Shown: positions 53,169-64,000 of the stretch, piece by piece
How the letters are laid out: the number at the start of each line of letters is the position of its first letter
Numbering within the stretch: the stretch's first letter is position 1
Assembly (NCBI GenBank): GCA_002787815.1
Contig: PCUY01000057.1
Span: forward strand, 69,930 to 133,929
Source of the DNA: Bacteroidetes bacterium CG12_big_fil_rev_8_21_14_0_65_60_17
GTDB lineage: Bacteria > Bacteroidota > Rhodothermia > Rhodothermales > UBA10348
DNA length: 64,000 bases
Direction of reading: 5' to 3'
Position numbers and translations under genes: made by a program
Notes under the pieces: generated by a model
The model's database searches: none
The model's input: the letters and a program-made list of their open reading frames with translations, nothing else
Told to the model about the DNA's origin: nothing

Positions 53169-54002
53169 TTGAGTACTGCGCATTCGGAATTTGACCCTGA
53201 AGCAGTGCGTCGTGTCACGACGCAGACATTACAGGAAATGAAGTCGGCTGGAACACCGATTGCCATGCTGACGGCATACGACTATACGTCCGCACGCATT
53301 CTGGATGGTGCTGGCATTGATGTCATCCTGGTGGGCGACTCTGCCTCCAATGTGATGGCAGGTCACGAAACGACCTTGCCAATCACGCTGGACCAGATGA
53401 TTTACCATGCCCAGTGTGTCGTGCGTGGTGTTGAGCGCGCTCTAGTAGTGGTGGATTTACCATTTGGATCGTATCAGGGAAACAGCCGGGAGGCACTGGT
53501 TTCGGCCATCCGCGTCATGAAGGAGTCGGGGGCGCACGCGGTCAAGCTCGAAGGAGGACGGGCCATTTGCCCAACCGTTGAGCGCCTTATTGATGCCGGT
53601 ATTCCGGTCATGGGACACCTTGGCCTCACCCCGCAGTCCATTTACCGATTTGGTACATATAAAGTCCGGGCACGGGGGGAGGAAGAGGCACGTATCCTCG
53701 AAGAGGACACGGCCATGCTGCAGGAGGCGGGTGTTTTTGCACTCGTTCTGGAGAAAATTCCTTCCAGCCTCGGCGGCCGTGTAAGCCATGTACTCGAGAT
53801 TCCAACCATCGGGATCGGTGCAGGGCCATCCTGTGACGGACAGGTACTTGTGACCCACGACGCACTTGGTCTCACGACAGACTTCAATCCCAGATTCGTA
53901 CGGCGATACGCGCAGCTCGATACGCTCATTGCGGGTTCCGTAAAGACGTTCGTCGAGGATGTCCGTTCACACAGGTTCCCTTCGGATGACGAAAGCTACT
54001 GA
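53169..54002 (+). CDS. panB: 3-methyl-2-oxobutanoate hydroxymethyltransferase
   Basis: 277 aa, TTG start in the track. [49 protein letters not shown]. Confidence 0.9.
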
Positions 54003-54786
54003 TCGCCCTTTGATTCTCGTCGCCAATGACGATGGAATAGATGCACCCGGTATCCTGTCGCTGGTGTCGGGACTGGATGGGCTGGGAGATATCATGGTAT
54101 GTGCTCCGATGGAGGAACAGAGTGCTGTTGGCCATGCCATAACCATGCGGGATCCCGTGCGGGCACGTGCCTGGCCCTTCCGTGGCCCCTCCGGACCGGT
54201 AGATGCCTGGGCCGTCAAGGGGACACCGGCGGATTGCGTCAAGTTGGCTCTGAACAAACTGGTACCCCGGCGACCCGATCTGGTCGTCTCGGGCATCAAT
54301 CACGGTCCCAATACAGCGGTCAATGTCCTCTATTCGGGTACCGTGAGTGCTGCCACGGAAGCATCCATCCTGGGTATACCCTCCATTGCATTCTCACATT
54401 GCAAGTGGGGTATCGGGGATTATGAGGCGGCAGCCCGAATAGCCCGGCAGATTGCAGAACATGTGTTGACACATGGAATGTCGACGGGAATTCTTCTCAA
54501 CGTGAACATACCCGATCTGCCGTACGAAGAAATACGGGGCATTATGACAACACGACAGGCCCGTTCCATGTGGGAGGAATCGTTCAGTGAGCGCAAGGAC
54601 CCGTTTGACAAGTCATACTACTGGTTGTCCGGGACGTTCGTGAACCTGGACAGTGGAAAGAATACAGATTTGCAAGCTGTTGAGGACGGTTATGTTTCTG
54701 TGACACCGATCATGCATGACCTCACGGCGCACGCGGCTCTTCGTGATCTTGAATCCTGGGATATCATGGGTGCACTCCATGGGTGA
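53986..54786 (+). CDS. surE: 5'/3'-nucleotidase SurE
   Basis: ATG 53986 gives [47 protein letters not shown]. Overlaps the panB end by 17 nt. Confidence 0.9.
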
Positions 54787-55258
54787 GTTGCGAGCCACGC
54801 TTGAAAAACAGGCCTCATCCTTTCACTTCACCGCCCGGACGGGCCGGGGGGCTACGGTCCAGATCGATGATCCGTCCTCGCACGCGGACGGCAAGGGTCA
54901 TGGCGCAAGCCCCATGGAACTGTTGCTGGTAGCCGTGGGTGGATGCAGCGCAATAGATATCGTATCCATCCTGGAGAAAGGAAGACACGTGGTGGATGCG
55001 CTGGATATAGACGTGCGCGGGGAAAAGCCGGACGATGCCGTACCGTCATTATTCCAGAAAATACACATCCGCTATGGATTCCGCGGAAATGTCCCGGTAG
55101 ACCGTGCCCGGCGGGCCATCGAGTTGAGTATCGGCACCTACTGTTCTGTAGCGCATACGCTGATGCCAACGGCACAGATCACATGGGATTTCACCATAGA
55201 TGGGAAGATCTTTGGCCCCGTCAACACTGCGCCGGGATTTACCGGCGAACCCAGATAA
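54779..55258 (+). CDS. OsmC/Ohr-family peroxiredoxin-like protein
   Basis: ATG 54779 (overlaps the surE stop). [25 protein letters not shown] and CSVAHTL carry the two conserved Cys contexts of OsmC. Confidence 0.8.
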
Positions 55259-57572
55259 GCGCCGTCTGCGCCGGCACGGTTACACGGCCCGATGCAGGGT
55301 CATGGACGGACGCTGCAATCCCGTCAGAATGTATCTGGTGGCCATCTGAGATCTGGATCCAATCTGCACCGGGAATAGAAAGCCCTTCGAATGTGCCTTC
55401 CGCCCTGCCGGAGTTGATGAGGACGAGTACGGTCCTGTCGACCAGATACCCGAGCATATCAGTGCGCTGAGGCTCGAAGAATCGGTAGTAATCAGCCGCC
55501 GGTTCATGACCGCCGACACGGAATACAGCACCGACGTTGGACGACCTGAAGTCCAACAGGCCTTTCCAGTATGCCAGCATGGCGTCGTAGTCCATGGGAC
55601 TGTCAGCTCCGACGGTATCCCACAGGTATTGGTTGGCGCGCCGCAGGTTGTATGTATCCCGTTTTCCGTGGATGTATATGGGACCAGAGTCCGTTTTTTT
55701 GACCAGTTCGACGAGTGGGGCTATGCCTTTGGAGCGCATGATTTCCGTACCACCGTGAAGCACAATGGGGCCAAGTGATGTCGTGAGCAGTGTCGCCGCA
55801 ATTCGGAACGCCGCTTCATCCACGTGCTTGAGCCCATTCCAGTCCATATCGGAAAAACGGTCAGCCAGCGTCCAGTTATCGTGGATGTCGAGGTAATTGA
55901 TGCCCCGGTTCGGGTCCATTTCCTCCGGGAAGGAATTGGTCAAACCGCGCTTTGTCTGCTCACGAACCGAACCGTCACCTCCGGCAAAACCACGATCCGT
56001 ACGTGGGTCCACCGGATTGGACACCGGTCCCTTGAATGCATTCCTTGCATCGTCCTGGAAGTAGGTGATGGGCGCATCTGCCTTGTACCATCCGAAATCC
56101 GGATCCGAGGCTACTCTAACGTCCGTAGGGGGAATCCAGGCTTCACCGTAAATAATCAGATCTTCCGGCAATTGATCCTTGACCCAGCGCAGCGTCTGCT
56201 CATCAATCTGACCAGCAAGATCAATCCGGAATCCATCGACGCCAAGCGCATTGACCCAGTGGCTGAGTTGGTCCAGGATCCAGCGTTGGACCATGGGACG
56301 CTCTTCCGACTTTATTTCATTACCGAACGGGCCAATATGGCGCAGCGAGTCATCGGTTCTGTGATAGAAGGGGAGATCGATGGCATTGAAATTGAACAGT
56401 AGGTGTCTTCCGTCCATGTTTTCACCGGTATGGTTCGGGACCACGTCAATAATGACAGACAGCCCCTGATCATGGAACGCCTCGACAAGCGCCTTGAACT
56501 GTTCGCGCTCCGCGCCGGGCTCGGTTCGCGGGTCGCGAAACCGGGATTCGACCGCAAAAGCATGCGTGGTTCTGTAGCCCCATTGATAATTTTCTTCCGA
56601 AATGCCCTGTTCTATCATGTACGGGTCGTCCCGGAATGCACGTTGCCATTCATCGTCAGGATAGTGCAGATACTCCTGGACGGGCATGAGGTGGACTACG
56701 TTGATGCCCAGGTCGACCAGATAGTCGAAACCAATGGCTCGCCCCCGGCTGTTCGTCAAACCAGGCATGGCCATGGCACGGAATGTGCCCCGGAGGGCTT
56801 CATCTACCGGCAACCTGTCGGTGAAGTCCTGGACGTGTACCTCATAGGCGATGACATCTTCCATACGAGGCCGGCCTCCGGTTACGGGTGAAGGTGGAGG
56901 CGTGTCCCGCCAGACGCGTGCCTTTCCGAACGAGTCATCGCTGACCAGTGCATATGGGTCTGTGATATAGGCTGGATGCGTGCCGTAGAAGTAGTTGCCC
57001 GGCTCGTCAGGCCCATGAATGGTGTATGTGTAGTACACACCGTGGTGGTTTCCGGGCTCGGTGGCTTCCCACACACCGTCGTTGTCGACACTCATGATCA
57101 CCGTTCGGTCGGGTACTTCTGCAGGTGTGTCCCGATCCGAGTAGAGATGCAATTCAACACCGAATGCCCGCGGGGCGAAGAGCCTGAAGGTTGTTTCGCT
57201 CCCGTCGACCGCAATGGATGCCCCCAAGGTCTTATCGGAATACAGTGTGGAAAACCATGCATCCCGTCGGATGAAGTGCTCTTCCCCTGTGGGGAGATAG
57301 ATGAGCGTATGCAGCCTGCGAACGTCAAGAGGTGTTTTGGGGACGAGGAGGTAGGACTGTGCCCGTTTGGGAAGGACGTTGCTGACCTGAACGTCCCCGG
57401 ATGCAGCAGTCCGTATCCGGAATTCGGACGCGTCGGGCTGGACGTCAGGATCCGAGACATGGACTGTGATCAATGATTTGTTCACGATCTGGGCACGTGA
57501 GATGTGCTGTCTCGCGGATGTCGGCGTTGAGATCAGCAGCAGGACGCAGAAAGGCAGGATTACGCGGAGCAT
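55239..57572 (-). CDS. secreted GH13 pullulanase-type alpha-glucan debranching enzyme
   Basis: 777 aa. Signal peptide MLRVILPFCVLLLISTPTSARQ. YQWGYRTTH (YNWGYDP-like), DVVPNHT, GFRIDLAGQ, YGEAW, NYLDIHDN (GH13 regions I-IV). The 3' end overlaps the osmC 3' end by 20 nt. Confidence 0.85.
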   Translation of the reverse strand: MLRVILPFCVLLLISTPTSARQHISRAQIVNKSLITVHVSDPDVQPDASEFRIRTAASGDVQVSNVLPKRAQSYLLVPKTPLDVRRLHTLIYLPTGEEHFIRRDAWFSTLYSDKTLGASIAVDGSETTFRLFAPRAFGVELHLYSDRDTPAEVPDRTVIMSVDNDGVWEATEPGNHHGVYYTYTIHGPDEPGNYFYGTHPAYITDPYALVSDDSFGKARVWRDTPPPSPVTGGRPRMEDVIAYEVHVQDFTDRLPVDEALRGTFRAMAMPGLTNSRGRAIGFDYLVDLGINVVHLMPVQEYLHYPDDEWQRAFRDDPYMIEQGISEENYQWGYRTTHAFAVESRFRDPRTEPGAEREQFKALVEAFHDQGLSVIIDVVPNHTGENMDGRHLLFNFNAIDLPFYHRTDDSLRHIGPFGNEIKSEERPMVQRWILDQLSHWVNALGVDGFRIDLAGQIDEQTLRWVKDQLPEDLIIYGEAWIPPTDVRVASDPDFGWYKADAPITYFQDDARNAFKGPVSNPVDPRTDRGFAGGDGSVREQTKRGLTNSFPEEMDPNRGINYLDIHDNWTLADRFSDMDWNGLKHVDEAAFRIAATLLTTSLGPIVLHGGTEIMRSKGIAPLVELVKKTDSGPIYIHGKRDTYNLRRANQYLWDTVGADSPMDYDAMLAYWKGLLDFRSSNVGAVFRVGGHEPAADYYRFFEPQRTDMLGYLVDRTVLVLINSGRAEGTFEGLSIPGADWIQISDGHQIHSDGIAASVHDPASGRVTVPAQTALIWVRR

Positions 57573-57610: not shown

Positions 57611-60600
57611 TCAGGCGGCGCGTCCGGGAAAATGGAATATTCTGGCGACGTTATTCTCCTGGTGAGGTGCCATGAGTCCGGTCACCTGACGAAGGAGTTG
57701 TACTTGGGACACGGCACGATCTGTGACTGCCGACACGTGTACATTCGTGGTTTCCGAATCGACATCCTCCCAGAATATGTGAAGGCTGTCCTGGGCACCA
57801 TCATGCAGGTGTTCACGCATGAAGGTGGTCAGTTCGTCACGGATTGTCGCCAGGTTGGCAGAGCGCGATACGGGAACGCACAAACTGACGGCCTGTGCGT
57901 TGTCCAGGAACGTGACGGCGGGACCCAGCATAGCCGCTGGATTCAGTACGACCGACTCGCCTGTCGTGAGGTCTAATCTGACGGTGCTCCTGCTGAGCTT
58001 GATGTCCCGGGCCCTGACTCCATGGAAGAGAACAACAAACCGATTTGCTGCACGTAACTTCCATCGCCACGACGTCATGGCCACAACAAGTTGTATGGCC
58101 GACGAGGATTCGATGGCGATGGAAACGGCACACAGGGCAAGCGCAGTTGAAATTCCCGCAAGCGGCCCCAGAACGGTCACAACCCCTGCCAGAAGGAGTG
58201 CATACAGCAGACACTGGCGTACATACCACAGCAGATGGGAATCGCGGAGATGCGAAATATTGCCAAGTTCAGTGTGGCGAGTGCGTACGACATGTCGAAT
58301 AACAAGATCAGCGGCAATTACATAGGACAGGAACGAAAGAATCCAGAGGAGTACGGCTACGGGAGTGACGGGGGGTAGTGGCACGACAAATCCGGGTGAG
58401 GCCGCGGAATGGTCACGGGAACGGCCCCTGGAAAGATCGTATTCCTGAGCCGGCACAGCGCTTTCATCAGGATGTGCGGTGTCCTCCACGGGTGGGATCA
58501 CCGGCATGAGCACTGCCGATGCAGCCAACGTGTCTGCATCATGTTGAATCGGTCGTGGGGATGACGTCGACCCGCGGAATTGTGATGGAGATGGTGACGG
58601 TGACGAATCCGGGGCCGGTGCAGGAGGAGGGGATGGAGATCCAAGTTGAAGCGATCCGGACGATCCTGTGTCCTGGAACCGGATGGTGCGTTTTACCGGA
58701 ACGGCTTCGAAATACCGTGTCGTGACGGCGCCACCGGTGACGGTAATGCTGTATTCCTGCTCTGCAAAGGTGTGGTAGGCGGGAAGACGATCAGCGGATA
58801 AGAGCCGCAGCACATAGGAGCCGGCGGGAACGCCCCGGACTGTAAAAGAGCCGTTTCTGTCGGTTCGTACCCGCCAGGAACGCGCATCGGACCGAAGTTC
58901 AATCACGGCACCAACTATGCGTTCCTTCTCGACCATTCCGGATCCTACATCGCGGTGCAGAAGACCCGCTTCTCCGGGTGGGCCGAGCCGGGCTACATGA
59001 CCGGAAACACTGCCGGCAGAGACGACCGGGATATCGATCGTACCTGCGTCAGCTCCGACGAGGTACGGCATTTCCGTCAGTGTAACCATCCCATTCGGGA
59101 GGGATACTTGATTGACTTCCAGGTATTCCGAATGGCCCATCGACTTGGGAATGCGAAATTTTCCGTGGGCGTCACTGATAACCAGGTGTGAACCGTAACG
59201 AAGAAGAACACCTTCTATGGGAATACCGGTATCACCATGGTAGACATGGCCATGTAACACATCCAAGGACGCATCACTGGACCGGGGCACGGGTATTCCC
59301 AGAGGCACGGTCACACCCATACGGAATTCCATTTTCCTGTCACTGGATCGTCCGTCCGACATACTTGTCTGGCTCTGGACGAACGCACGACTGCCCGACT
59401 CGAACTGTTTTGACGCCTGGAAAGTGAGGCTGCGGTATGTCTGGGTTTCCCGACCAGTGACCCGATTCTGGATGCCACCCACGGACACGTGCAATTGAGC
59501 AGGAAGTTGGACTCCGGCACGGATGCCATATTGCTCGTACTGCTGTCGGATGCGGGACGAGATCAGGAAATCCGAGTAACGGTCTCCACTGGCCGATATG
59601 CTGAGCCAACGGGTGGGGCTGATCCGCGCTTGGAGGCGGGTTCTGTGGGTGGGCGAAGCCCTGTTGTCCTGGTCAATCCGTTGACCGAAATCCCGGGTTG
59701 CGGTGATGCCCATGCGCGAGCGCTGCAGACCTGTTGTTGCGCGCAGGACGCGTGATTCCGATGAAAGACGGTGGTCCGGCGTGCGGAGCACAATACGGTC
59801 GCGTGTGGCCCGGGCGGATGTGGTCCATGTTGTGGCATGAATGCGGCGGGAATAGGTAACTCCCAGCTTTGCAACGTGCAGCACTCGGTTGGAACCCAGG
59901 TCAGAATTCCTGTACTGGACCTGGAAGGACTCCTCCAACTGAAGTCCGGGCAGCAGTTTGAGGCGAACAGATTCGGAAAAAGACCGGGTGCCGGATTGTG
60001 AGCCCGGAAGTGACGTGGCAGCGCTCAGCGCCTCCATGCGGCTTTGAACTGGACCCCTGGTATACGCCGTCTCGACGCGACACGAGGGGTCTGAAAGGCG
60101 ACCACTGCCCGACAGGCCACATTCAGCCCCGATCAGCGACCGTGACCCGGCCGGTGTCCAGTCGTAGGCAAGCGTTGCAATCGATCCGGAGTAGAGCCCC
60201 TTTCGCGTCAAGAGGTTTGCCGAAAAAAATGAAGATGTGTTCAGGTGTCGGCGTACCGAGACGCCCGCAAGTGCGTCGTCGGGTGCGTAGGAGCGACTTC
60301 GGCTTCCAAGCAACGTTACGTCCCATGCGTTGAAGAGCATTCGGGATGATGCTCCCAGTCGGTAGACACCCCATGTCGTAAGTCGCGACATATTCTGTGC
60401 ATGATCTCCGACGACGACTTCCACCTTTTCAGACGTGTAGGAGATGCGGAATTCATCTCGTGCACCCAAGAGTCCCTGGGACGAGTTACCGGCAAGGGTA
60501 CCAACGACTTCCACGTCTCCATTGAAGGCATCGAATGCAGTCGAAATGTGGGCGACGGGTTGTGTGCCTCGTTCGTTTCCGATGGCTTCCATCGTGAGGG

Positions 60601-61372
60601 CAAGAGGCACGGGCTGGCCACGCGTTGCCATCTTTTCATACAGCGGAATGATGTCCGTTCGAATGGAGACATGGTCTTCGATCCCGGGGGAGTCGACAAT
60701 GCGAGCTGTGATGGTGTATGACGCCGCCGTGACGGCTTCCGTGTCGCTGTTGGTTGTGAGGGAGATGGGGACCACCGCGGATTCACCCGATTCAAGCTCC
60801 AGACTGTGGGCACCAAGGTGTAATTGTCCGGCATCGGATCCATCCCAGGAGAGCGCCATGCTGGCACGTGCGTTCCCGTCGTTGAATACGGTCAGTGCGG
60901 CCTGGACGGTCTTCCCGGCTGCAACAAAGGGCGGCGTTGATTCCATGTGCATTGACAGACCGTACTGCGTATCGACGGAAACGCTGACCGTTTCGGAGGC
61001 AGATAATTCCGTTTGACCAGGGGCAGAGACAGAGAACGTGACGTCATACGAACCGGCCAGGAACAGGTCAGGGACGTGGACGCTGACCAGGCGGACAACA
61101 GGATTTTCAGGACGGACTGTCATTTCCGACTGCGGGCGGAGACTTCTCCAGCCCGCCGGCATGTCAATACGGGGTGTCAGTGTGGCCAAGCCGGATCCGG
61201 AGAGTTCGACCCTGAATGCCAGTGTCATGACGTCGCCAGGTGCAACGCGGATGGGTGACTGGCCGACAAGGGAAACGAAAACAGAGTCGGGTCCTGAAAC
61301 GATTTCAGCCGCCCCCTGTGGGGGGACGGCTAAAAACATGATAAACAACACTATGTGTCGAAGCAGAGGCAC
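57611..61372 (-). CDS. 1253-aa multidomain envelope protein: signal peptide, two Ig-like (NEW3/CARDB-like) domains, ~440-aa beta-barrel-like region, two CarboxypepD_reg-like domains, Pro/Ser-rich linker, 3-TM MscS-like C-terminal module
   Basis: Single uninterrupted ORF. The GTG start (cac 61370-61372) directly abuts the TAA of the upstream gene. Domain calls come from motif reading: PAGWRSL..VHVPDLFLAGSYDV (NEW3-like); alternating strands LHVAKLGVTYS / WLSISASGDRY / TYRSLTFQASKQF / MEFRMGVTVPLG; GHVYHGDTGIPIEGVLL..SDAHGKFRI and TDRNGSFTVRGVPAGSYVLRLL (CarboxypepD_reg-like); SPSPPPAPAPDSSPSPSPS; TM helices at aa ~1003-1100; TGESVVLNPAAMLGPAVTFLDNA (MscS beta-domain-like). Confidence 0.85.
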   Translation of the reverse strand: MPLLRHIVLFIMFLAVPPQGAAEIVSGPDSVFVSLVGQSPIRVAPGDVMTLAFRVELSGSGLATLTPRIDMPAGWRSLRPQSEMTVRPENPVVRLVSVHVPDLFLAGSYDVTFSVSAPGQTELSASETVSVSVDTQYGLSMHMESTPPFVAAGKTVQAALTVFNDGNARASMALSWDGSDAGQLHLGAHSLELESGESAVVPISLTTNSDTEAVTAASYTITARIVDSPGIEDHVSIRTDIIPLYEKMATRGQPVPLALTMEAIGNERGTQPVAHISTAFDAFNGDVEVVGTLAGNSSQGLLGARDEFRISYTSEKVEVVVGDHAQNMSRLTTWGVYRLGASSRMLFNAWDVTLLGSRSRSYAPDDALAGVSVRRHLNTSSFFSANLLTRKGLYSGSIATLAYDWTPAGSRSLIGAECGLSGSGRLSDPSCRVETAYTRGPVQSRMEALSAATSLPGSQSGTRSFSESVRLKLLPGLQLEESFQVQYRNSDLGSNRVLHVAKLGVTYSRRIHATTWTTSARATRDRIVLRTPDHRLSSESRVLRATTGLQRSRMGITATRDFGQRIDQDNRASPTHRTRLQARISPTRWLSISASGDRYSDFLISSRIRQQYEQYGIRAGVQLPAQLHVSVGGIQNRVTGRETQTYRSLTFQASKQFESGSRAFVQSQTSMSDGRSSDRKMEFRMGVTVPLGIPVPRSSDASLDVLHGHVYHGDTGIPIEGVLLRYGSHLVISDAHGKFRIPKSMGHSEYLEVNQVSLPNGMVTLTEMPYLVGADAGTIDIPVVSAGSVSGHVARLGPPGEAGLLHRDVGSGMVEKERIVGAVIELRSDARSWRVRTDRNGSFTVRGVPAGSYVLRLLSADRLPAYHTFAEQEYSITVTGGAVTTRYFEAVPVKRTIRFQDTGSSGSLQLGSPSPPPAPAPDSSPSPSPSQFRGSTSSPRPIQHDADTLAASAVLMPVIPPVEDTAHPDESAVPAQEYDLSRGRSRDHSAASPGFVVPLPPVTPVAVLLWILSFLSYVIAADLVIRHVVRTRHTELGNISHLRDSHLLWYVRQCLLYALLLAGVVTVLGPLAGISTALALCAVSIAIESSSAIQLVVAMTSWRWKLRAANRFVVLFHGVRARDIKLSRSTVRLDLTTGESVVLNPAAMLGPAVTFLDNAQAVSLCVPVSRSANLATIRDELTTFMREHLHDGAQDSLHIFWEDVDSETTNVHVSAVTDRAVSQVQLLRQVTGLMAPHQENNVARIFHFPGRAA
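58373..58660 (-). other. Pro/Ser/Ala-rich low-complexity linker (aa ~905-1000) inside the 1253-aa ORF
   Basis: Translation: GSSGSLQLGSPSPPPAPAPDSSPSPSPSQFRGSTSSPRP...PVIPPVEDTAHPDESAVPAQ...SPGFVVPLPP. Confidence 0.8.
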
Positions 61373-62185
61373 TTAGTTGATGGCAAGAGTGTATTCGGCT
61401 CCGAAGACTTCGTTCATTCCAGCGTCCATGATTACAAGGGCCTTGTACTCACCTTGAGGTAGCGATCCGAGTACGATTTTCTGTTTTACGGATGTCCCCG
61501 GATAGATCCTGTTTTTGAATCCATCCCGTTTTCCGACCGGATTGCCCATGGCATCGTAGAGTTCGATCCAGATATCGGGCTGTGCCAATCGGTTTCCGTT
61601 GTTCACGATGGAAACATCCAATTGGGCGTGACCTTGTTCGTTTTTTACAAGTGTGCTTTCCATGATGTTCAGGAGACTTGATCCGGTTCCTGTGATATGG
61701 GTAGCAACTTGTATGCCATACCGGGTAATCTGTCGAATACCGAATTCTGCCTTCGTAGAGTCTGCATTGGTACGCGACTCCGGTGAATCCACGGGGATAC
61801 CCTCGACCATTATCATGCTCCACCAGGAACCGGAAAGGGTATCAGAGTCGGGAACGTGTACCGCGTACGGGATGGAAACAGTCTGAAGGGGTGGAACGCT
61901 TGTGGAGGAGAGACCGAGATCAATCCAGCGTGCATTGGATCGGGCCAGGGCTCCCGGTGCGCCGAAGAAGTTGGATCCATCGAAATGGAACGAATAATCG
62001 GTCTGGTAAATCCGGATTTCCTCCATCACGTTCGAGTCGTTCCGGACCGAAATCGTGCCGTGGTATGTGGTGCCGGGTTCGGCAACCTGGTCATGACTCA
62101 GTTGGCTCCGTACGGAAATCTGCGCTTCGGCGACAGATGTGCCGCATAGTGCAAGTAAAAGTGTAGGTAAAACAAGACGTGTCAT
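61373..62185 (-). CDS. 270-aa secreted two-beta-sandwich protein, DUF916/DUF3324 (CscA-like) architecture; candidate periplasmic chaperone/assembly factor
   Basis: Signal peptide MTRLVLPTLLLALCGTSVAEAQ. Domain 1: EPGTTYHGTISVRNDSNVMEEIRIYQTDY...VPPLQTVSIPYAVHVPDSDTLSGSWWSMIMVE...RYGIQVATHI. Domain 2: AQLDVSIVNNGNRLAQPDIWIELYD...IYPGTSVKQKIVLGSLPQGEYKALVIMD...FGAEYTLAIN. ATGA overlap with the upstream gene. No C-terminal TM anchor. Confidence 0.8.
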   Translation of the reverse strand: MTRLVLPTLLLALCGTSVAEAQISVRSQLSHDQVAEPGTTYHGTISVRNDSNVMEEIRIYQTDYSFHFDGSNFFGAPGALARSNARWIDLGLSSTSVPPLQTVSIPYAVHVPDSDTLSGSWWSMIMVEGIPVDSPESRTNADSTKAEFGIRQITRYGIQVATHITGTGSSLLNIMESTLVKNEQGHAQLDVSIVNNGNRLAQPDIWIELYDAMGNPVGKRDGFKNRIYPGTSVKQKIVLGSLPQGEYKALVIMDAGMNEVFGAEYTLAIN

Positions 62186-62667
62186 TGTGCCAGAAGGGTA
62201 TAGGTTACTGTGTGCGTATCGTCTCCGTGTGTTTGACTGTTGCCGTCCGCAACACGTGCTGAGGCCCGGTATCGAAGCAGTCCGGTACCCTGTTGGGATC
62301 GGGATCCGGGCAGGATATTCGTGAGGATGTCTTCATCGAACATGCCATCGACGAGTTCGACCTCGGGGTGCATATCGACCATGCTTCCGGTTCCATAACT
62401 GGTTACCTGCAATTCCACGAACAACCGAAAGTGCTGTGAGGTAGCCATGGTTGAGACCACGAGTTTGGCGGGAACGCCGAGATTGGCGTCCCAGAATATT
62501 CGCGTACCGGCATCCGTGGCATCGACAGGCTCTCCGCCGGGCGGAGCTTCCGATATCTCGAGTGTAATGGGGCCACCACCGGTCAGGAATTCAAGCCTCT
62601 GCGCATCGACACTTGTCGCAGAGGTACCCATTATAATGACTGCTAATATGTAGCGTAACAACGACAT
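62182..62667 (-). CDS. small secreted beta-rich protein, divergent member of the local three-gene family (candidate minor subunit)
   Basis: 161 aa. Signal peptide MSLLRYILAVIIMGTSATSVDAQ. Shares the family layout and the C-terminal HTVTYTL motif with the two upstream paralogues. Starts 8 nt after the upstream stop. Confidence 0.75.
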   Translation of the reverse strand: MSLLRYILAVIIMGTSATSVDAQRLEFLTGGGPITLEISEAPPGGEPVDATDAGTRIFWDANLGVPAKLVVSTMATSQHFRLFVELQVTSYGTGSMVDMHPEVELVDGMFDEDILTNILPGSRSQQGTGLLRYRASARVADGNSQTHGDDTHTVTYTLLAQ

Positions 62668-62675
62668 GTGCCCAG

Positions 62676-63248
62676 TCAGTTGGATGTCAACGTGAAGGTT
62701 ACTCGGCGCGATATGCCTGCAGTGCCAGTTGGTGCGACCGTGATATCGGCATGGCCTGTGTAGGTTATCCCGAGGTTGGTCGCAGCAATCAGGTTGACAC
62801 CTTTGACGAGGTCGACCGGATCGCTGCTGAGTATTCGACGGGTGGCCGTTGCGCCCGGAGGAGGCGTGAGTTCGACCGACAGTTCCATACCGGCAGGAAA
62901 TTCCGTATCGAGTGACCCCACGATTTTCTTGTCACTTCCGTTGACCGTGAGTGCATAGGTCGACCCGGAGTGGGTGACCGGTGAGAGCGGCGTTCCTGCT
63001 TCCGCCTCGGCAATGGGGATCAGTACGTCACCGCTTATTGCGATCCGGTTTATTTCCAGCACGCGAACCGTGACTGTCTGGGAGAGCGATACCTGGTTTC
63101 CGGCAAGTGGAATGGCGTCCGGAAGGGGAGGTGGAGTCTGGGCCCACGCAGACGGGGACAGCCCAAGCAGCGCCACAACACACGCCGAAAAGAGAGAAAG
63201 GGCCCATGCCGCGAGTCCAACAGTCTTATAACGCTGTGGATGCACCAT
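62676..63248 (-). CDS. small secreted beta-rich protein, paralogue 2 (has an extra Pro-rich N-terminal extension after the signal peptide)
   Basis: 190 aa. Signal peptide ending SPSAWA-QTPPPLPDAIPLAG. Clear by-eye paralogy to 63289-63774. AAGGAG lies ~8 nt upstream of the ATG. Confidence 0.8.
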   Translation of the reverse strand: MVHPQRYKTVGLAAWALSLFSACVVALLGLSPSAWAQTPPPLPDAIPLAGNQVSLSQTVTVRVLEINRIAISGDVLIPIAEAEAGTPLSPVTHSGSTYALTVNGSDKKIVGSLDTEFPAGMELSVELTPPPGATATRRILSSDPVDLVKGVNLIAATNLGITYTGHADITVAPTGTAGISRRVTFTLTSN

Positions 63249-63288
63249 GGACCCTTCTCCTTTTCTGCTTGATCAACAACGACAGCGG

Positions 63289-63774
63289 TCAGTTGGTAAT
63301 CGTGTACGTGACGGTGTAACCGGTCGACACCAGTTTGCCAGCTGCGGCCGTTGCCGAGAACGTGTAGTTCAAGGCCAGTCCGGACGCGGCTATGGTAGAC
63401 ATGCCGGTCACGACATCGGATGCAGTTTCCGTCAATGCAACGTCCGTGCTGCCCGTTGCACCGAGGGGTGCAGCCGCATCCACGACCAGTGACATGTTCG
63501 CCGGAAGGTTGGTATCAATCTCCGCCGTGATCTTCTTGGCCGACTCGTTCGTCGTGACGGCATACGAGGCTGAACCGGATACCGGATCCGGATCGGAACC
63601 CGGCGTCGCCTGGTCGATGGTCAGTGTGACGTCGCCCGTGATGGCCAGGACATTGATGGCCGCCACCTCCATGGTGACGGTATGGCCTTCGGTATCTGTC
63701 TGGGCAAATGCGACATGCGACACACCGAGTGCGACGAACATGGCGAGCGCAAATGCACGTAGTGTTCTATTCAT
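63289..63774 (-). CDS. small secreted beta-rich protein, paralogue 1 (first gene of the operon; candidate major subunit)
   Basis: ATG 63774 (ORF open to 63879) gives MNRTLRAFALAMFVALGVSHVAFA-QTDTEG. A perfect AAGGAGGT lies 8 nt upstream. 161 aa, Thr/Ala/Val/Ser-rich, no Cys. Confidence 0.8.
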   Translation of the reverse strand: MNRTLRAFALAMFVALGVSHVAFAQTDTEGHTVTMEVAAINVLAITGDVTLTIDQATPGSDPDPVSGSASYAVTTNESAKKITAEIDTNLPANMSLVVDAAAPLGATGSTDVALTETASDVVTGMSTIAASGLALNYTFSATAAAGKLVSTGYTVTYTITN

Positions 63775-63782
63775 GGTATTGT

Positions 63783-63790
63783 ACCTCCTT
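63783..63790 (-). promoter_or_regulatory. Shine-Dalgarno sequence AAGGAGGT, 8-nt spacer to the ATG of the first small-subunit gene
   Basis: Plus strand acctcctt at 63783-63790. This is the strongest SD I noticed in the window. Confidence 0.6.
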
Positions 63791-63809
63791 GTACAGACTG
63801 TGAGTGAAA

Positions 63810-63828
63810 TCGGAGGCCTGTCCTCCGA
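63810..63828 (-). promoter_or_regulatory. 7-bp stem / 5-nt loop hairpin in the leader of the operon (tcggagg-cctgt-cctccga); role unknown (5'-UTR structure or terminator of an upstream gene)
   Basis: Read directly. On the minus strand it is followed by TTTCAC and lies 36-54 nt upstream of the ATG. Confidence 0.3.
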
Positions 63829-64000
63829 CTCAAACCGGGTATCGTCTGCTTTCCGGGTTCCTGAAGCCATGAATTGCATGACGACGTTACCGTTTCAAGA
63901 ACGACAAGGTCTTGGTAACACTAAGCCCGCCAACACGTAATCGGTATGCGTAAAGGCCTGATGTGACGCCCTGGGGACGCCACATGACATCGTGCCAACC

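Follow-up and report, generated by a model that had tools for sequence, protein, structure and literature searches.

The fusion gene and its parts

We analysed a 64,000-nucleotide stretch of contig PCUY01000057.1 (positions 69,930 to 133,929 of the forward strand; Bacteroidetes bacterium CG12_big_fil_rev_8_21_14_0_65_60_17, assembly GCA_002787815.1). This whole stretch is called the window and all coordinates are positions within it. On its minus strand, the ORF (open reading frame) listing contains a single uninterrupted ORF of 1253 amino acids (aa), at 57611..61372, that spans an usher-like N-terminal part and a channel-like tail. This fusion gene, its predicted product (the window protein) and the genes around it are the subject of this work. 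A first-pass annotation made from the letters of the window had described a frame that continues without a stop codon from the second of two CarboxypepD_reg-like domains through a Pro/Ser linker into three hydrophobic helices and a tail. We confirmed that all of this lies in one 1253-aa ORF, and the tail sequence quoted in that annotation is present in it. The three helices coincide with hydropathy peaks at aa 1004-1026, 1047-1072 and 1074-1100 (Kyte-Doolittle means over 19 residues of 2.33, 2.25 and 1.75, respectively), and about 150 aa follow the third helix. The GTG start of the fusion ORF abuts the stop of an upstream ORF of 270 aa. The parts of the fusion are as follows, where TM denotes a transmembrane helix and A3 a family alignment described below.

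57611..61372, minus strand: whole fusion ORF, 1253 aa, GTG start, stop codon at 57611-57613
61307..61372, minus strand: aa 1-22 (MPLLRHIVLFIMFLAVPPQGAA), a Sec-type signal peptide that coincides with a hydropathy peak (aa 7-25); cleavage site inferred
60653..61285, minus strand: two immunoglobulin (Ig)-like β-sandwich domains, aa ~30-240 (Pfam NPCBM_assoc, Ig_VWA7, FixG_C and CARDB; AlphaFold)
59294..60610, minus strand: predicted outer-membrane β-barrel, usher-like, ~26 antiparallel strands, aa ~255-693 (AlphaFold, Foldseek)
58679..59260, minus strand: two prealbumin-like (CarboxypepD_reg-type) domains, aa ~705-898 (Pfam PF13620, AlphaFold)
58364..58678, minus strand: Pro/Ser-rich spacer, aa 899-1003, presumed to be disordered and periplasmic (composition, low conservation)
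58295..58363, minus strand: TM1, aa 1004-1026; its cytoplasmic end carries the conserved residues D1022 and R1026 (hydropathy, A3 conservation)
58157..58234, minus strand: TM2, aa 1047-1072, opening with a conserved W-x-V-R-Q...Y motif (hydropathy, A3 alignment)
58043..58153, minus strand: TM3, the pore-helix equivalent, aa 1074-1110 (hmmsearch against PDB MscS chains, hhalign against E. coli MscS)
57902..58042, minus strand: equivalent of the MscS β-domain, aa ~1111-1157, aligned to MscS 132-177, with five predicted strands
57659..57901, minus strand: equivalent of the MscS α/β-domain, aa ~1158-1238, aligned to MscS 178-268
57614..57658, minus strand: C-terminal strand and conserved -[KR]AA tail (ENNVARIFHFPGRAA), aa 1239-1253 (A3 alignment)

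The N-terminus of one full-length relative, P0003, is equivalent to the signal peptide of the window protein. The Ig-like region has a sub-threshold match to NCBIfam choice_anch_T and is modelled by AlphaFold with a predicted local distance difference test score (pLDDT) of 82-92. In the prealbumin-like region, a Pfam scan placed a PF13620 CarboxypepD_reg match at aa 817-885 (E 7.6e-10); the two domains occupy the place that the C-terminal domains have in ushers.

The C-terminal module is related to MscS

Searches with single sequences were empty, and homology of the C-terminal module to the mechanosensitive channel MscS surfaced only with a 14-sequence family alignment of the module (A3), which we used as the profile for a PDB search and for hhalign. 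Against all PDB sequences, this profile gave significant E-values to MscS-family chains only, with the best match to 4hw9 (MscS of H. pylori, E 2e-7) and further matches to E. coli MscS (~5e-5) and to YnaI-MscS chimeras. The alignment covers TM3 through the end of the α/β domain; the β domain also draws weak Sm-fold matches in this search. Alignment of A3 with E. coli MscS (sequence taken from the MG1655 translation) by hhalign had a probability of 96% and an E-value of 4.5e-9 over 169 columns, pairing family columns 75-243 with MscS residues 98-268. When Pfam families were ranked over the family members, PF00924 (MscS β domain) came first, matching three of the 14 sequences with a best E-value of 5e-4.

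The AlphaFold model of the C-terminal part contains three long helices, five strands and then a β-α-β-β-α unit, and its cytoplasmic part has a pLDDT of ~80-87. All of the top 50 Foldseek matches to this model are members of the MscS family (MscS, MscK, YnaI, YbiO, MSL1, MSL10 and Flycatcher1), with a best E-value of 2.4e-7. The MscS-like module that the first-pass annotation had proposed is supported by three independent tests, with the PDB profile search, hhalign and Foldseek all pointing to the same family. The MscS sequence pattern given in that annotation is only loosely present, with VVLNP in place of IPN.

The agreement extends to the pore helix. The segment LALCAVSIAIE in TM3 of the window protein aligns to L100-A110 of MscS, placing V1083 at L105, I1087 at L109 and E1088 at A110. 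Both seal positions (L105 and L109) are therefore occupied by hydrophobic residues, and small residues occur at the equivalents of G101, G104, A106 and G108. The family consensus for this part of TM3 is LGLxGISVAIE compared to LGAAGLAVGLA in MscS, with both glycines kept. E1088, which follows the L109 equivalent, is invariant across the family. At the other end of the module, 12 of the 14 sequences terminate in -AA, typically [KR]AA, behind a short hydrophobic strand (ARIFHFPGRAA, YPPLRLVQGNRNKAA). The C-terminus of E. coli MscS, ...MDVNFKRVKEDKAA (NFKRVKEDKAA), resembles this tail.

The MscS features that we found are the TM3 pattern, the β domain, the α/β domain with its terminal strand and a predicted topology with the N-terminus out and the C-terminus in; the window protein itself does not reach the threshold of any curated Pfam or NCBIfam MscS model. 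Judged from these alignments and models, we regard the last ~250 residues as a true MscS-superfamily member, though one that has diverged to an extreme degree.

Several other conserved residues in the module are of interest. Charged or polar residues lie within or at the ends of TM1 (D1022 and R1026), TM2 (R1052, Q1053 and Y1057) and TM3 (E1088), encoded at nucleotides ~58109-58309, and R1052 and Y1057 are near-invariant in the family. In a heptamer, E1088 would place a ring of seven Glu residues beside the equivalent of the L109 seal, which could affect ion selectivity or gating. The conserved -AA tail could have a role in assembly of a C-terminal barrel, or as a tag for degradation or sorting.

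The N-terminal part has the predicted architecture of an usher

We modelled aa 23-908 with AlphaFold from an 11-sequence input (pLDDT 84.3). The model consists of two Ig-like domains, ~26 consecutive antiparallel strands and two β-sandwich domains, in that order. The barrel strands follow one another in meander order with a pLDDT of ~85-93. In a Foldseek search of the PDB, the ushers FimD and PapC were the first matches (9fy9_D, 6e14, 3rfz and 7lhg) over ~750 columns, with E-values from 2e-12 (9fy9_D) to 1e-9. The runners-up were LptD, Occ porins (OccD), Wzi and MOMP, and all of the proteins matched by the barrel region are outer-membrane proteins. The TM-scores were 0.26-0.42, the highest being for the FimD translocation domain alone (0.42, target-normalised). 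Based on these matches, we consider it likely that the middle region is an outer-membrane barrel. The term "usher-like" used in the first-pass annotation stood at the level of the fold, where a model with a pLDDT of 84 matches FimD and PapC best; it did not stand against the Pfam Usher family, against FimD in hhalign or in regard to a plug. The term therefore describes an architecture and not membership in a family.

The fusion is conserved in distant relatives

We found this continuous architecture in nine further proteins: P0001 is nearly identical to the window protein (99%), and the remaining eight share 25-57% identity with it. A word-indexed search found P0001, P0002 (56%) and P0003 (55%), which are full-length relatives of 1220-1242 aa that all contain the spacer and the module. 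More distant fused homologues (P0007, P0008, P0009, P0011, P0013 and P0017) came to light with HMMER, using a three-sequence profile of the C-terminal part in an exhaustive search of 1.84 billion representative proteins. This search yielded 13 proteins; seven of them are 1220-1328 aa long with the module at the extreme C-terminus, and these distant fused proteins match the window protein end to end with 25-30% identity. Canonical MscS was absent from the 13 matches, and by this search the family is rare and isolated. A profile search of genome contigs (alignment A2) matched just one already known Bacteroidota metagenome-assembled genome (MAG). The five fused proteins with traced contigs derive from separate ENA, NCBI and Logan records. 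Whether homologues are fused or split at the linker had been left as a question by the first-pass annotation; all nine of the other full-length carriers of the module are fused.

Comparison with P0002 and P0003 showed identities of 63% for the barrel, 59% for the prealbumin-like domains, 57-60% for TM1-3 and 47-48% for the cytoplasmic tail. The linker is the sole poorly conserved region, with 26-32% identity to P0002 and P0003 and 9-21% in distant members, compared to 25-63% for the domains on either side of it. Two constrained halves joined by an unconstrained linker, in the same frame in the homologues, argue for a long-standing fusion and not for an assembly frameshift. On this comparison of sequences, the ORF is a genuine and anciently fixed gene fusion, and we consider it very likely that a real fusion is present that carries a module of the MscS superfamily. 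The precomputed Pfam domains of P0001-P0003 include only those of the CarboxypepD_reg and NPCBM_assoc types, and the channel module is missed.

The spacer

The spacer (aa 899-1003) is 19% Pro and 18% Ser, with a Pro/Ser-rich stretch ("GSPSPPPAPAPDSSPSPSPS...") that starts at aa 912 (nucleotide 58639). In the five proteins measured, the linker is 76-108 aa long; taking 0.3-0.36 nm per residue, its contour length is by arithmetic ~30 nm. The in-frame ATG at 58507 that had been pointed out previously does exist and corresponds to aa 956. Met 956 is not conserved and linker lengths differ between homologues. Motif scans of the linker DNA detected no sigma-70-like or Bacteroidetes-type (-7) promoter motif and no terminator, and comparison of the homologues revealed no conserved cleavage motif in the linker.

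In the otherwise unconserved linkers of distant homologues (P0007, P0008, P0009, P0011, P0012, P0013 and P0017), two short motifs are located directly before TM1. The first, W-x-x-[ML]-[LM]-x-D-[ST]-A, may form an amphipathic helix, and the second is [IL]P[FY][YW][VL]. Counterparts of these motifs in the window protein (DTLAASA and PGFVVPL) are weak.

Relatives that contain only one half

Two distant usher-like relatives, P0004 and P0005, do not contain the channel module. Upstream of the usher-like gene, their loci are arranged in the same way as that of the fusion. The locus of P0005 encodes five small proteins, a 293-aa protein and then the usher-like protein of 936 aa; that of P0004 encodes proteins of 191, 313 and 1020 aa. 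No MscS-like gene was seen adjoining either P0004 or P0005. The gene 3' of P0004 was considered as a split-off channel and rejected because it encodes a Gly-rich secreted protein. If these relatives are functional, the module is dispensable for the core machine.

The module also occurs without the pore, in two relatives that occupy the chromosomal slot of the fusion. P0010 (377 aa, L004:1130-2263) is encoded between FolD and a pullulanase-like gene with pilus genes absent, and comprises its own signal-peptide-like N-terminus, a linker remnant of ~60 residues and a complete module. P0012 (915 aa, L008:8001-10748) is encoded between FolD and OsmC/SurE, again with pilus genes absent. Its N-terminal half is similar (33% identity, E 1e-66) to the N-terminal half of a 992-aa protein encoded just ahead of the operon in a related locus, L001. 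In the same reading frame, this half continues into the end of the second prealbumin-like domain, followed by the linker and the module. The large secreted protein upstream of the operon in L001 has a match to Por_Secre_tail of the type IX secretion system. Retention of the module behind a secretory N-terminus in both P0010 and P0012 suggests that the module is useful without the pore and that its N-terminus is needed outside. Thus, the module probably has a function of its own besides the pore. Four other candidates for stand-alone modules were rejected: P0016 sits on a 1.2-kb contig, and the sequences of P0014, P0015 and P0006 begin inside the module.

A model for the topology and function of the fusion

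The loop between TM1 and TM2 (aa 1027-1046, HVVRTRHTELGNISHLRDSH) contains three Arg residues, and the sequence RWKLRAANR follows TM3; in the predicted topology, both are positively charged segments on the cytoplasmic side. We propose the following arrangement. The signal peptide would route the first ~1000 residues through Sec, and TM1 would act as a stop-transfer sequence with the N-terminal side left outside. The Arg-rich loop between TM1 and TM2, the β domain and the α/β domain would remain in the cytoplasm, which is the topology of MscS. The barrel would be inserted into the outer membrane by the β-barrel assembly machinery (BAM), and the spacer (76-108 residues, rich in Pro, Ser and Thr) would cross the periplasm together with the two prealbumin-like domains. 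By analogy with MscS, the module would oligomerise, probably as a heptamer, and such a heptamer might serve both as an inner-membrane hub and as a tension-gated valve tethered to several fibre-secretion pores. Through the tether, the inner-membrane channel could be coupled to the outer-membrane machine, to its mechanical state or its state of assembly; at minimum, the module would cluster and anchor the pores.

From the sequence comparisons and structure predictions, we consider it reasonably probable that the window protein is such a composite, in which a channel or anchor of the MscS type in the inner membrane is linked covalently to a pore for fibre secretion. For the chain staying intact across the envelope, the prospects are about evenly balanced. 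A more specific version, in which an intact seven-copy complex spans the envelope and displacement of the outer membrane or a pull on the fibre tensions the spacer and gates the channel (a "force-from-tether" MscS), is improbable.

A number of results weigh against the composite. At the C-terminal end, the window protein alone has no Pfam MS_channel match even at E<=10, and its C-terminal part alone matches nothing in NCBIfam and, with phmmer, nothing in the PDB. Foldseek TM-scores of the C-terminal model to MscS are ~0.3, and the pLDDT of that model is 65 overall and 51-58 in the TM helices. The hinge glycines of MscS, G113 and G121, are not conserved in the family according to A3 and hhalign. 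At the N-terminal end, the Pfam scan gave no match in the barrel region, including to Usher (PF00577), and hhalign of the N-terminal family profile against FimD had a probability of 3%. No plug insertion was seen in the barrel, as judged from the secondary-structure string of the model, where the longest gap is ~13 residues. In an analysis of strand alternation, which is a simple test and not a decisive one, the lipid-facing side was only moderately hydrophobic. The lack of the module in the usher-like relatives P0004 and P0005 and a negative hhalign comparison of the 270-aa protein with the chaperone FimC point in the same direction.

Alternative explanations

The fusion could be a precursor in which a periplasmic protease cuts the spacer, giving a separate outer-membrane pore and inner-membrane channel, so that the fusion serves co-expression or stoichiometry only. 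The long, poorly conserved and presumably disordered linker would be a good substrate for a protease, and the halves are found singly, as unfused usher-like proteins (P0004 and P0005) and as module-only or re-fused forms (P0010 and P0012). However, the linker has no conserved cleavage motif, and the conserved motifs before TM1 in distant members suggest a structured periplasmic junction. Moreover, every full-length carrier of the module is fused, down to 25% identity, which would be needless for mere co-expression from an operon. We consider a precursor of this type unlikely.

Alternatively, the module may be a non-conducting relic that acts as an inner-membrane anchor or oligomerisation scaffold and clusters outer-membrane pores, an explanation that overlaps the composite that we favour. 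It would accommodate the extreme divergence of the module, the missing Pfam match of the window protein, the loss of the hinge glycines and the invariant Glu, not a usual feature of MscS, beside the equivalent of the L109 seal. It would not readily explain why the small-residue pattern of the pore helix and both hydrophobic seal positions are retained, or why conservation of the whole cytoplasmic vestibule (β domain, α/β domain and C-terminal strand) is similar to that of the remaining protein. P0010 and P0012 also retain the module in frame with no pore to anchor. For these reasons, loss of conduction is doubtful.

The first-pass annotation had set a chain reaching the outer membrane beside a giant channel of the MscK type with a periplasmic domain stack. 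In such a channel, the N-terminal 1000 residues would form the stack and the β-rich middle would not be in the outer membrane. MscK, MscM and YbiO do have an MscS core preceded by a signal peptide and a sizeable domain in the periplasm, MscK is among the fold matches of the module and the barrel strands are only moderately hydrophobic on their lipid-facing side. Against this, the middle is modelled as ~26 meander strands with a pLDDT of ~85-93, its fold matches are all outer-membrane barrels (FimD, PapC, LptD, OccD, Wzi and MOMP), the window protein has three hydrophobic helices compared to 11 in MscK, and the small secreted subunit-like neighbours fit a secretion pore. The chain across the envelope is favoured by the predicted barrel and its matches, and the periplasmic stack seems rather remote.

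Finally, an assembly or frameshift artefact, or two genes with the module translated separately (for instance, from the ATG at 58507), is very improbable, because the in-frame ATG at aa 956 and the stand-alone 377-aa form (P0010) that could favour it are countered by an identical continuous frame in nine other proteins (five traced to different records), by an unconserved Met at aa 956 with varying linker lengths, by linker DNA with neither a sigma-70-like nor a Bacteroidetes-type promoter motif, and by a stand-alone form that begins with its own signal-peptide-like N-terminus and not within the linker. The sequences thus largely refute an artefact, and an internal start may provide a second isoform.

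The operon and its chromosomal neighbourhood

The fusion is the last gene of a five-gene cluster on the same strand, in which three genes for small secreted proteins are followed by the gene for a 270-aa secreted protein and then the fusion. The genes ahead of the fusion are as follows.

61373..62185, minus strand: 270-aa secreted protein in the chaperone position (context; without detectable homology)
62182..63879, minus strand: three small secreted proteins (161, 190 and ~161-196 aa), putative fibre subunits (common C-terminal strand motif)

The strand motif common to the small proteins is …YTVTYTITN, with RRVTFTLTSN and HTVTYTLLAQ as further versions. The same cluster order is present in three related loci (L001:7603-10001, L009:5054-7455 and L003:4217-7973), of which L001 is from a Bacteroidota MAG. 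In L009 and L001, the order begins with FolD, a protein of ~993 aa (992-993), three small proteins, the 270-aa protein and the fusion, and continues with a pullulanase-like gene, OsmC, SurE, PanB, two OmpH genes and BamA. This layout fits that of a chaperone-usher fibre operon. Neither the small proteins nor the 270-aa protein gave a meaningful match in Pfam scans or PDB profile searches, with no similarity to known pilins or PapD-like chaperones, and we infer their "chaperone" and "subunit" roles from the operon layout only.

More generally, the genes at 61373-63879 (minus strand) are those of a fibre-type operon, in which three to five small secreted proteins and a protein of 270-293 aa precede the usher-like gene. 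This operon may represent a new chaperone-usher-like system, traced to a Bacteroidota MAG.

A pullulanase/isoamylase-like gene (55239-57572, minus strand), predicted to encode a CBM_48 domain, an α-amylase catalytic domain and a signal peptide, begins 38 nucleotides past the end of the fusion ORF. Of the five related loci in which this slot is visible, four have the gene in the same place. The two genes are not separated by a terminator-like site and could therefore be co-transcribed. In L009 and L001, an envelope-biogenesis block comprises OsmC, SurE, PanB, two OmpH/Skp-like chaperones, BamA, UppS and RseP; OsmC, SurE and PanB are present in the examined part of the window (53169-55258 and beyond). 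This order places the usher-MscS gene next to machinery that would insert its barrel.

Significance of the fusion

MscS is the textbook example of a channel gated purely by tension in the lipid bilayer. A natural MscS homologue covalently joined to a predicted outer-membrane pore raises the question of whether a protein tether can also gate or position channels in bacteria. In the "force-from-tether" version, a surface appendage would be connected mechanically and directly to the cytoplasmic membrane. The window protein would also be a rare polypeptide with both a BAM-type β-barrel and Sec-inserted α-helical TMs, which bears on the envelope biogenesis of such substrates. Current family annotations overlook the channel module entirely. 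In addition, the fusion gene marks an uncharacterised chaperone-usher-like fibre operon that is traced to a Bacteroidota MAG.

Comparison with known systems

The first-pass annotation knew of no fusion between an usher and an MscS module, and the literature that we searched likewise contained no usher, nor any outer-membrane barrel, linked to an MscS module and no tethered-MscS architecture. Each part of the window protein is individually recognisable; their combination is unprecedented in the searches made.

The module is like MscS (E. coli YggB; MS_channel_1st/2nd/3rd; TCDB 1.A.23) in having three TMs with the N-terminus out and the C-terminus in, the small-residue pattern and two seal positions of TM3, the β and α/β domains and a tail strand ending in -KAA or -RAA. 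It differs in its low identity (~10%), in the absence of G113 and G121 and in the invariant Glu by the L109 equivalent. The window protein itself is without a Pfam match to MscS, and it adds a secreted N-terminal extension of ~1000 residues. The fusion resembles MscK, MscM and YbiO in that a signal peptide comes first, a long N-terminal region lies outside the cytoplasm and the MscS core is at the C-terminus, and MscK and YbiO are among the Foldseek matches of the module. MscK-type channels contain eight additional TMs and a periplasmic domain that is helical, giving MscK 11 TMs in total. By contrast, the fusion has only a signal peptide and three hydrophobic helices, with a presumably disordered spacer and an all-β region that includes the predicted outer-membrane barrel.

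Like FimD and PapC, the fusion is predicted to contain a large barrel flanked on both sides by β-sandwich domains and, as at usher loci, it stands last in an operon that also encodes small, subunit-like secreted proteins and a secreted protein of ~270 aa. Unlike them, it has ~26 strands and not 24, no plug was seen in its model, there is no sequence or profile similarity, and its flanking domains are Ig-like (NPCBM_assoc/CARDB) and prealbumin-like. We know of no usher with an inner-membrane module. TonB and TolA use a Pro-rich, low-complexity segment to link an inner-membrane anchor to the outer-membrane layer; their contact with outer-membrane partners is non-covalent and is energised by ExbBD or TolQR. 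In the fusion the link to the outer membrane would be covalent, and no motor genes were seen nearby.

The only single chain proposed to occupy both membranes that is documented in the literature searched is PelB, of the Pel exopolysaccharide exporter, for which a bridge between them has been proposed that combines in one chain a helix in the inner membrane, a segment across the periplasm and a β-barrel in the outer membrane (PMC12141448). PelB has one uncleaved N-terminal anchor helix, a rigid tetratricopeptide repeat scaffold and a C-terminal barrel. The fusion has the reverse order, with its predicted barrel towards the N-terminus, a presumably disordered spacer in place of the rigid scaffold and a multi-pass inner-membrane part that belongs to a channel family.

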